A stretch of 64,000 bases of DNA from Escherichia coli (GTDB taxonomy: Bacteria; Pseudomonadota; Gammaproteobacteria; Enterobacterales; Enterobacteriaceae), in assembly GCF_030384885.1 (NCBI RefSeq), contig NZ_CP128613.1; one strand, given 5' to 3'. Numbering within the stretch: position 1 is the first letter of the stretch; the number at the start of each line of letters is the position of its first letter. The notes beneath the pieces were generated by a model. The model did not search any database. It was given only the letters and a program-made list of their open reading frames with translations, and was not told the DNA's origin. The position numbers were made by a program, and so were the translations under genes. Of this stretch, positions 3,745 through 25,900 are shown piece by piece.

Positions 3745-3890
3745 GTAGGCCGGATAAGGCGCTCGCGCCGCATCCGGCTACGGTGCCGACTGCCTGATGC
3801 GACGCTCGCGCGTCTTATCAGGCCTACAAATTCTCGCACCATCCGGCAACGGTGCCTAATGCGACGCTTACCGAGTCTTATCAGCCCCCG
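3745..3890. repeat. REP/BIME cluster (three REP units)
   Basis: Repeated gccggataaggcgctcgcgccgcatccggc and ctgatgcgacgctcgcgcgtcttatcaggcctac palindromic units between yjdM and yjdN. Confidence 0.85.
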
Positions 3891-23462: not shown

Positions 23463-23501
23463 AATGTCAGCCGCGTGATGGCTGTCACGCGGTATTTCGT
23501 T

Positions 23502-23524
23502 TCGTCACGTCAAAACTGACGACA
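23502..23524 (+). promoter_or_regulatory. Putative FhlA upstream activating sequence for fdhF
   Basis: Inverted repeat tcgtca-N-tgacga (tcgtcacgtcaaaactgacgacag) about 90-110 bp upstream of the sigma54 element; function inferred from known fdhF regulation. Confidence 0.4.
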
Positions 23525-23592
23525 GCCTGTTTTTCGTCAGAGTTTTGAACAAATAGTGCCCGTAATATCAGGGAATGACCCCAAATAAAATG

Positions 23593-23608
23593 TGGCATAA
23601 AAGATGCA
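23593..23608 (+). promoter_or_regulatory. Sigma54 (-24/-12) promoter of fdhF
   Basis: tGGcataaaagatGCa matches the TGGCAC-N5-TTGCA consensus spacing, about 50 bp upstream of the fdhF ATG. Confidence 0.7.
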
Positions 23609-23659
23609 TACTGTAGTCGAGAGCGCGTATGCGTGATTTGATTAACTGGAGCGAGACCG

Positions 23660-25807
23660 ATGAAAAAAGTCGTCACGGTTTGCCCCTATTGCGCATCAGG
23701 TTGCAAAATCAACCTGGTCGTCGATAACGGCAAAATCGTCCGGGCGGAGGCAGCGCAGGGGAAAACCAACCAGGGTACCCTGTGTCTGAAGGGGTATTAT
23801 GGCTGGGACTTCATTAACGATACCCAGATCCTGACCCCGCGCCTGAAAACCCCCATGATCCGTCGCCAGCGTGGCGGCAAACTCGAACCTGTTTCCTGGG
23901 ATGAGGCACTGAATTACGTTGCCGAGCGCCTGAGCGCCATCAAAGAGAAGTACGGTCCGGATGCCATCCAGACGACCGGCTCCTCGCGTGGTACGGGTAA
24001 CGAAACCAACTATGTAATGCAAAAATTTGCGCGCGCCGTTATTGGTACCAATAACGTTGACTGCTGCGCTCGCGTCTGACACGGCCCATCGGTTGCAGGT
24101 CTGCACCAATCGGTCGGTAATGGCGCAATGAGCAATGCTATTAACGAAATTGATAATACCGATTTAGTGTTCGTTTTCGGGTACAACCCGGCGGATTCCC
24201 ACCCTATCGTGGCGAATCACGTAATTAACGCTAAACGTAACGGGGCGAAAATTATCGTCTGCGATCCGCGCAAAATTGAAACTGCGCGCATTGCTGACAT
24301 GCACATTGCACTGAAAAACGGCTCGAACATCGCGCTGTTGAATGCAATGGGCCATGTCATTATTGAAGAAAATCTGTACGACAAAGCGTTCGTCGCTTCC
24401 CGTACAGAAGGCTTTGAAGAGTATCGTAAAATCGTTGAAGGCTACACGCCGGAGTCGGTTGAAGATATCACCGGCGTCAGCGCCAGTGAGATTCGTCAGG
24501 CGGCGCGGATGTATGCCCAGGCGAAAAGCGCCGCCATCCTGTGGGGCATGGGTGTAACCCAGTTCTACCAGGGCGTGGAAACCGTGCGTTCTCTGACCAG
24601 CCTCGCGATGCTGACCGGTAACCTCGGTAAGCCGCATGCGGGTGTAAACCCGGTTCGTGGTCAGAACAACGTGCAGGGTGCCTGCGATATGGGCGCGCTG
24701 CCGGATACGTATCCGGGATACCAGTATGTGAAAGATCCGGCTAACCGCGAGAAATTCGCCAAAGCCTGGGGCGTGGAAAGCCTGCCTGCTCATACCGGTT
24801 ATCGCATCAGCGAGCTGCCGCACCGCGCAGCGCATGGTGAAGTGCGTGCCGCGTACATTATGGGCGAAGATCCGCTACAAACTGACGCGGAGCTGTCGGC
24901 AGTACGTAAAGCCTTTGAAGATCTGGAACTGGTCATCGTCCAGGACATCTTTATGACTAAAACCGCATCAGCGGCGGACGTTATTTTACCGTCCACCTCG
25001 TGGGGCGAGCATGAAGGCGTGTTTACTGCGGCTGACCGTGGCTTCCAGCGTTTCTTCAAGGCGGTTGAACCGAAATGGGATCTGAAAACGGACTGGCAGA
25101 TTATCAGTGAAATCGCCACCCGTATGGGTTATCCGATGCACTACAACAACACCCAGGAGATCTGGGACGAGTTGCGTCATCTGTGCCCGGATTTCTACGG
25201 TGCGACTTACGAGAAAATGGGCGAACTGGGCTTCATTCAGTGGCCTTGTCGCGATACTTCAGATGCCGATCAGGGGACTTCTTATCTGTTTAAAGAGAAG
25301 TTTGATACTCCGAACGGTCTGGCGCAGTTCTTCACCTGCGACTGGGTAGCGCCAATCGACAAACTCACCGACGAGTATCCGATGGTACTGTCAACGGTGC
25401 GTGAAGTCGGTCACTACTCTTGCCGTTCGATGACCGGTAACTGTGCGGCACTGGCGGCGCTGGCTGATGAACCTGGCTACGCACAAATCAATACCGAAGA
25501 CGCCAAACGTCTGGGTATTGAAGATGAGGCATTGGTTTGGGTGCACTCGCGTAAAGGCAAAATTATCACCCGTGCGCAGGTCAGCGATCGTCCGAACAAA
25601 GGGGCGATTTACATGACCTACCAGTGGTGGATTGGTGCCTGTAACGAGCTGGTTACCGAAAACTTAAGCCCGATTACGAAAACGCCGGAATACAAATACT
25701 GCGCCGTGCGCGTCGAGCCGATCGCCGATCAGCGCGCCGCCGAGCAGTACGTGATTGACGAGTACAACAAGTTGAAAACTCGCCTGCGCGAAGCGGCATT
25801 GGCGTAA
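23660..25807 (+). CDS. fdhF: Formate dehydrogenase H, selenocysteine-containing (in-frame UGA at 24077-24079)
   Basis: ORF-track ORFs 23660-24079 and 24128-25807 are in the same frame, separated only by TGA; N-terminal Cys cluster CPYCASGC; total 715 codons. Confidence 0.95.
24080..24122 (+). promoter_or_regulatory. SECIS element (selenocysteine insertion stem-loop) of fdhF
   Basis: Stem-loop-forming sequence cacggcccatcggttgcaggtctgcaccaatcggtcgg immediately 3' of the in-frame TGA. Confidence 0.85.
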
Positions 25808-25822
25808 TACAGTCCTTTCTAC

Positions 25823-25849
25823 AGCCTCCTGTCGGAGGCTGTTTTTTTA
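25823..25849 (+). terminator. Rho-independent terminator of fdhF
   Basis: cagcctcc-tgtc-ggaggctg hairpin followed by TTTTTTT. Confidence 0.8.
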
Positions 25850-25900
25850 TCCATTCGAACTCTTTATACTGGTCACTCCCTACCCAATCGTATTATCAAA

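Follow-up and report, generated by a model that had tools for sequence, protein, structure and literature searches.

The stretch of DNA analysed here (the window) comprises 64,000 nt of Escherichia coli contig NZ_CP128613.1. It contains fdhF among the same neighbours as in K-12: mdtN-mdtO-mdtP, fdhF, yjcO, gltP and nrf. Feature coordinates are collected in Table 1. A mechanical list of open reading frames cuts fdhF into 23660..24079 (139 aa) and 24128..25807 (559 aa). Divided by three, the start positions 23660 and 24128 both leave a remainder of 2, hence the two ORFs share a frame, the second starting at the next in-frame ATG. When the whole gene is translated in that frame, codon 140 is the sole internal stop besides the terminal one, and beyond it the frame stays open for 575 more codons. 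The preliminary description had ascribed the split to an in-frame TGA followed immediately by a stem-loop; this explanation holds, with one internal stop at 24077-24079 and a hairpin directly 3' of it.

Table 1. Position and basis of the features discussed; window coordinates unless an accession is given.
Feature	Position	Strand	Basis or remark
fdhF CDS	23660..25807	+	715 codons then TAA; codon 140 is UGA; product formate dehydrogenase H
UGA140, selenocysteine codon	24077..24079	+	TGA read directly; aligned with X at 1AA6 position 140
Full SECIS according to Rfam SECIS_2	24072..24126	+	5-bp outer helix 24072-24076/24122-24126 around UGA, plus main hairpin
Classical fdhF hairpin of about 40 nt, nt 3-42	24079..24118	+	Minimum free energy fold; lower stem, internal loops, upper stem-loop
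Minimal SECIS, 17-nt upper stem-loop, nt 15-31	24091..24107	+	GGUUGCAGGUCUGCACC
Sigma-54-type promoter-like sequence	23593..23608	+	TGGCATaaaagaTGCA; upstream of fdhF; GG and GC 12 nt apart
sraL, Hfq-binding sRNA	44423-44563	+	Rfam, 153.3 bits, above gathering score
naRNA4 (nucleoid-associated RNA), two matches	3748-3824; 37099-37170	+; -	Rfam, 99.2 and 70.8 bits, above gathering score
selC (tRNA-Sec)	NZ_CP027579.1 3659412-3659506		K-12 gene in 5424/5426 E. coli genomes
selA and selB	NZ_CP027579.1 3734666-3737898		K-12 genes in 5425/5426 E. coli genomes
selD	NZ_CP027579.1 710067-711110		K-12 gene in 5425/5426 E. coli genomes

The read-through product was compared with PDB sequences with a Cys placed at the stop codon. 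All other residues (714/714) are identical to those of formate dehydrogenase H in 1AA6, and the same match was obtained with 1FDI, 1FDO, 2IV2 and 7Z0T. The 1AA6 chain has an X, an unspecified residue, at position 140, precisely where fdhF has its TGA; this X is Sec140. The NCBIfam model TIGR01591 (formate dehydrogenase subunit alpha) scores 1095.7 bits over protein residues 6-685, the equivalog cut-off being 666.25 bits. The identification of the gene as fdhF in the preliminary description was thereby confirmed. Around codon 140 the translation reads CARV*HGP, and cysteines are found at positions 8, 11, 15 and 42. The latter form the N-terminal [4Fe-4S] motif of the FDH-H crystal structure, in which Sec140 and the subsequent His141 lie in the active site.

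RefSeq gives fdhF as a single 2148-nt CDS without pseudogene flag, both in K-12 and in strain 2013C-4282 (NZ_CP027579.1). The warning that automated callers would report a pseudogene or two genes is thus justified for a naive ORF list but not for current RefSeq annotation. Naming is inconsistent in RefSeq, in that fdhF appears in some O157:H7 records as 'formate dehydrogenase N subunit alpha, selenocysteine-containing'.

The split in the ORF list could be taken at face value, in which case the TGA would be a true nonsense mutation and fdhF a pseudogene, or two genes, in this strain. We consider this extremely improbable. The 55-mer that contains the TGA (24072-24126) was found in 5418 of the 5426 complete E. 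coli genomes, with 5411/5419 matching records showing 99% identity or more in the aligned portion. Compared with K-12, the fdhF of the window shows 32 differences, every one of which is synonymous, and therefore the protein is unchanged. Together with the 575 intact codons downstream of the TGA this is the opposite of pseudogene decay, and the X in the 1AA6 chain coincides exactly with the supposed mutation.

An error of sequencing or assembly as the origin of the TGA in the window is more improbable still, to the point of being negligible, and nothing was found in its favour. An independent complete genome, that of strain 2013C-4282, has the same bases and is 100% identical over the 2341 nt of 23560-25900, and thousands of other E. 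coli assemblies carry the same TGA. NZ_CP027579.1 is a near-clonal relative of the source, since only five mismatches separate it from the window across 42 kb. The region 23560-25900 was matched in 5419/5426 complete E. coli genomes; only five of 5420 E. coli records reach at least 99% identity over it, and the fdhF allele of the window is rare at the DNA level. Four of the E. coli fdhF matches are found on records labelled as plasmids.

Upstream of fdhF, three of 197 intergenic bases differ from K-12. The GG/GC spacing of the promoter-like sequence there agrees with the -24/-12 consensus of sigma-54 promoters. FhlA is a sigma-54-dependent activator that controls fdhF expression (PMC11841067), and the sequence would, as a putative fdhF promoter, fit this FhlA dependence. 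Repeated motifs of the TTTCGTCA / GTCAAAACTGAC type occur at 23488-23550, some 50-100 nt upstream of the promoter-like sequence, and may be FhlA upstream activating sites.

The TGA and its surroundings were compared with Rfam. Model RF01988 (SECIS_2) matches 24072-24126 over its whole length (1-55/55) with 87.9 bits, where the gathering score is 70 bits; the E-value is 6.3e-19 locally and 1.2e-17 when calculated for both strands of the whole 64-kb window. The element in fdhF is the sole SECIS hit in the Rfam scan of these 64 kb. SECIS_3 (RF01989) was also considered and rejected: its partial match to 24074-24132 reaches 35.8 bits, short of the gathering score of 63, and the element therefore falls outside that family. 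The site had been placed at 24077-24122, which is accurate, the Rfam element reaching about 5 nt farther on each side.

In the numbering of the SECIS, nt 1 is the U of the UGA codon. The minimum free energy (MFE) fold of 24077-24122 is one hairpin of -14.9 kcal/mol, its first paired base being the A of the TGA. The longer 55-nt segment (24072-24126) folds at -21.6 kcal/mol and forms the extra outer helix, matching the structure of the Rfam model. The review PMC8659212, which cites Liu et al. (1998) and Fourmy et al. (2002), presents the fdhF SECIS as a hairpin 40 nt in length. What is essential in it is the upper stem-loop of 17 nt (nt 15-31), located 11 nt from the UGA, with U17 bulged and G23 and U24 in the apical loop, U17 and G23 being the sites bound by SelB. 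The element in the window has these published features of spacing, U17 and G23/U24. The spacer between UGA and upper stem-loop is nt 4-14, hence 11 nt; the bulged U17 is 24093; and the apical loop GGUC corresponds to 24098-24101, with G23 at 24099 and U24 at 24100.

Stability was evaluated against 200 dinucleotide shuffles of the same segments. With z = -1.33 for the 46 nt of 24077-24122 (22/200 shuffles equally stable) and z = -1.76 for the 55 nt of 24072-24126 (12/200), thermodynamic stability was dropped as a criterion. The stability of the hairpin alone is not beyond chance and lies only marginally above that of shuffles of this G+C-rich stretch. The absence of a stable stem-loop, which the preliminary description had named as grounds for refutation, is a weak test, because shuffles of the same composition fold almost as well. 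Given this marginal stability we relied on the covariance model and on comparative data. What does exceed chance is the joint match of sequence and structure to SECIS_2.

Orthologous sites were collected from species-representative genomes with the peptide pattern CCARV-UGA-HG, which leaves the upper hairpin unconstrained. This yielded 120 loci, mostly from Enterobacterales and Pasteurellaceae. Since the pattern required the TGA, its presence in these 120 loci is not independent evidence. The alignment consisted of 46 distinct 55-mers, including that of the window. One locus (L102), which shares the CCARV-UGA-HG motif, was left out; its downstream sequence (V*HGVCRGNGIQHCGIN) is unrelated and unlike the fdhF SECIS.

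Given the 46 aligned sequences, RNAalifold missed the hairpin and returned an unrelated weak fold of -4.65 kcal/mol with zero compensatory pairs. This failure is due to rearrangements by lineage in the lower stem, and in Morganellaceae also in the upper stem, which defeat a single consensus, and the structure was instead tested by naming its pairs explicitly. The named structure pairs in 92.2% of the cells of the alignment, as compared to 21.7-46.7% after displacement of the 3' partners by one to three columns. The outer 5-bp helix pairs in 98.3% of cells and the hairpin of nt 3-42 in 90.1%.

Compensatory changes were found at two pairs of the upper stem: in 10 sequences nt 15-31 is U-A instead of G-C, and in 11 sequences nt 18-29 is A-U instead of U-A. 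The latter covariation shows that U18 is paired, which leaves U17 as the bulge. Double changes occur in 21 cells as compared to 5.1 +/- 1.8 in shuffles, and the observed covariation score was reached by none of 500 shuffles. All compensatory changes occur in Pasteurellaceae and probably go back to a single lineage event, which makes them equivalent to about one or two independent events. Their 3'-arm members alter residues (His to Leu, Gln to Lys) and their 5' partners are synonymous third positions. A 3' arm that changes the coding and is matched by synonymous changes in the 5' arm is what constraint at the RNA level would predict.

The same alignment bears on the possibility that the UGA is bypassed mainly by selenocysteine-independent read-through, for instance by near-cognate tRNA-Trp or by insertion of Cys, the hairpin being a by-product of the coding sequence. 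Such a reading would agree with a hairpin whose stability does not significantly exceed that of shuffled controls, and with the fact that the conserved peptide HGPSVAGL also constrains most of the paired columns. Coding constraint does not, however, explain the four-fold degenerate sites. Nucleotides 21 (Ala), 24 (Gly; this is U24) and 27 (Leu) are invariant among the 46 distinct sequences, whereas equivalent sites outside the upper stem-loop vary freely, all four bases being seen at nt 12 and at nt 42. Nor does it account for the synonymous 5'-arm changes that restore pairing in Pasteurellaceae. Furthermore, recoding of UGA140 in an fdhF fragment was shown to depend on selenium and on the SECIS (PMC4513850). 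We therefore regard bypass of this kind as very unlikely. The loop bases G23 and U24 are unchanged in 46/46 distinct orthologues and, taken together, the comparative data argue for a SECIS structure that has been maintained in evolution.

Several orthologous loci deviate from this pattern or are unusual in other respects. In Morganella, Proteus and Edwardsiella (loci L022, L026, L036, L041, L081 and L110) nt 30 is G rather than C, which changes His-Gln to Gln-Arg and removes the G16-C30 pair. In the predicted fold of these loci U17 pairs with G30, and there is either no bulge or G16 is bulged instead. They would represent a SECIS variant that lacks the bulged U17, a base described as essential in work on E. 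coli, and the predicted folds suggest a co-evolved specificity of SelB. Four genomes, those of Pluralibacter gergoviae, Cedecea neteri, Kluyvera genomosp. 3 and Silvania hatchlandensis, have two CCARV-UGA-HG loci with an fdhF-type SECIS each (locus pairs L030/L031, L058/L059, L074/L075 and L076/L077), which look like two selenocysteine-containing FdhF paralogues. A 3.8-kb contig from a metagenome-assembled genome labelled Desulfovibrio desulfuricans (L071) carries an enterobacterial-type fdhF SECIS with 4/55 differences from that of the window; the contig was probably mis-binned, and the gene would then not belong to Desulfovibrio.

Recoding requires the products of selA, selB, selC and selD, and the preliminary description had advised to confirm these genes elsewhere in the genome. 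Neither these four nor any tRNA gene of any kind is present in the 64-kb window. All four are annotated in the near-clonal NZ_CP027579.1, where they were located by synteny walking and where none is flagged as a pseudogene. The advice could thus be followed in a relative, and the sel genes of NZ_CP027579.1 are a very strong proxy for those of the source genome. Near selC in NZ_CP027579.1 (3638218-3654930; L006) we observed genes related to type III secretion and one for a large adhesin, among them iatC, eilA and members of the IpaD/SipD and YopB/SseC families. Such a gene content would fit with DNA adjacent to selC being a hotspot for horizontally acquired islands.

Taken together, the data identify the gene as the fdhF of E. 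coli with UGA140 read as selenocysteine through a bacterial SECIS and SelB, to which we assign a probability of approximately 98%; nothing substantive contradicts selenocysteine recoding. From the identity with the K-12 element we infer both the binding of SelB and the insertion of selenocysteine at the UGA. According to established work on the K-12 element of identical sequence, SelB, carrying GTP, would bind the apical loop and the bulged U of the hairpin 3' of the UGA during translation. It would bring Sec-tRNA(Sec), the product of selC, which is charged with serine and converted by SelA using the selenophosphate provided by SelD. With SelB tethered to the upper stem-loop 11 nt past the UGA, Sec-tRNA(Sec) would be delivered into the A site, in competition with release factor 2. 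Reading the UGA as selenocysteine would yield the full FDH-H of 715 aa with Sec140 in the active site of this Mo-bisMGD molybdenum enzyme; when selenium or the sel genes are lacking, translation would end at codon 140.

The consequences concern annotation hygiene only, in that fdhF would be split or truncated by a gene caller blind to recoding. Its confirmation in a further E. coli strain adds nothing new, because fdhF is the archetype and founding example of the recoding of UGA to selenocysteine in bacteria. The site is a clean positive control for the recognition of recoding signals in raw sequence.

The closest known system is the K-12 fdhF SECIS (RF01988), with which the window shares the hairpin, U17, the G23/U24 loop and the 11-nt spacing. 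The bases from the UGA to +50 are identical to those of MG1655, as is the protein. The element in the window is the fdhF SECIS itself, not merely one like it, and as such was already known. UGA140 of K-12 fdhF and its SECIS were reportedly described by Zinoni et al. in 1986 (PNAS 83:4650; the original discovery, cited in PMC11841067) and in 1990 (PNAS 87:4660), and Liu et al. reportedly defined the minimal element in 1998 (NAR 26:896). Within the Rfam span there is one difference: position 24073, a T in K-12, is C in the window, so that the outer helix has C-G in place of a U.G pair and is tightened. The matches of most E. coli start at base 3 of the query, and these genomes therefore appear to have the K-12 base. 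No functional effect of this difference is expected. It is conceivable, although unlikely, that the outer helix tunes how the UGA is divided between RF2 and SelB, in which case the C allele could recode with an efficiency slightly different from that of K-12. The SECIS elements of fdnG and fdoG, which encode the respiratory formate dehydrogenases N and O, follow the same mechanism, with an in-frame UGA and then a SelB-binding hairpin. They are separate genes at other loci outside the window, with hairpins of a different sequence. Selenocysteine is present in each of the three formate dehydrogenases of E. coli (PMC11841067).
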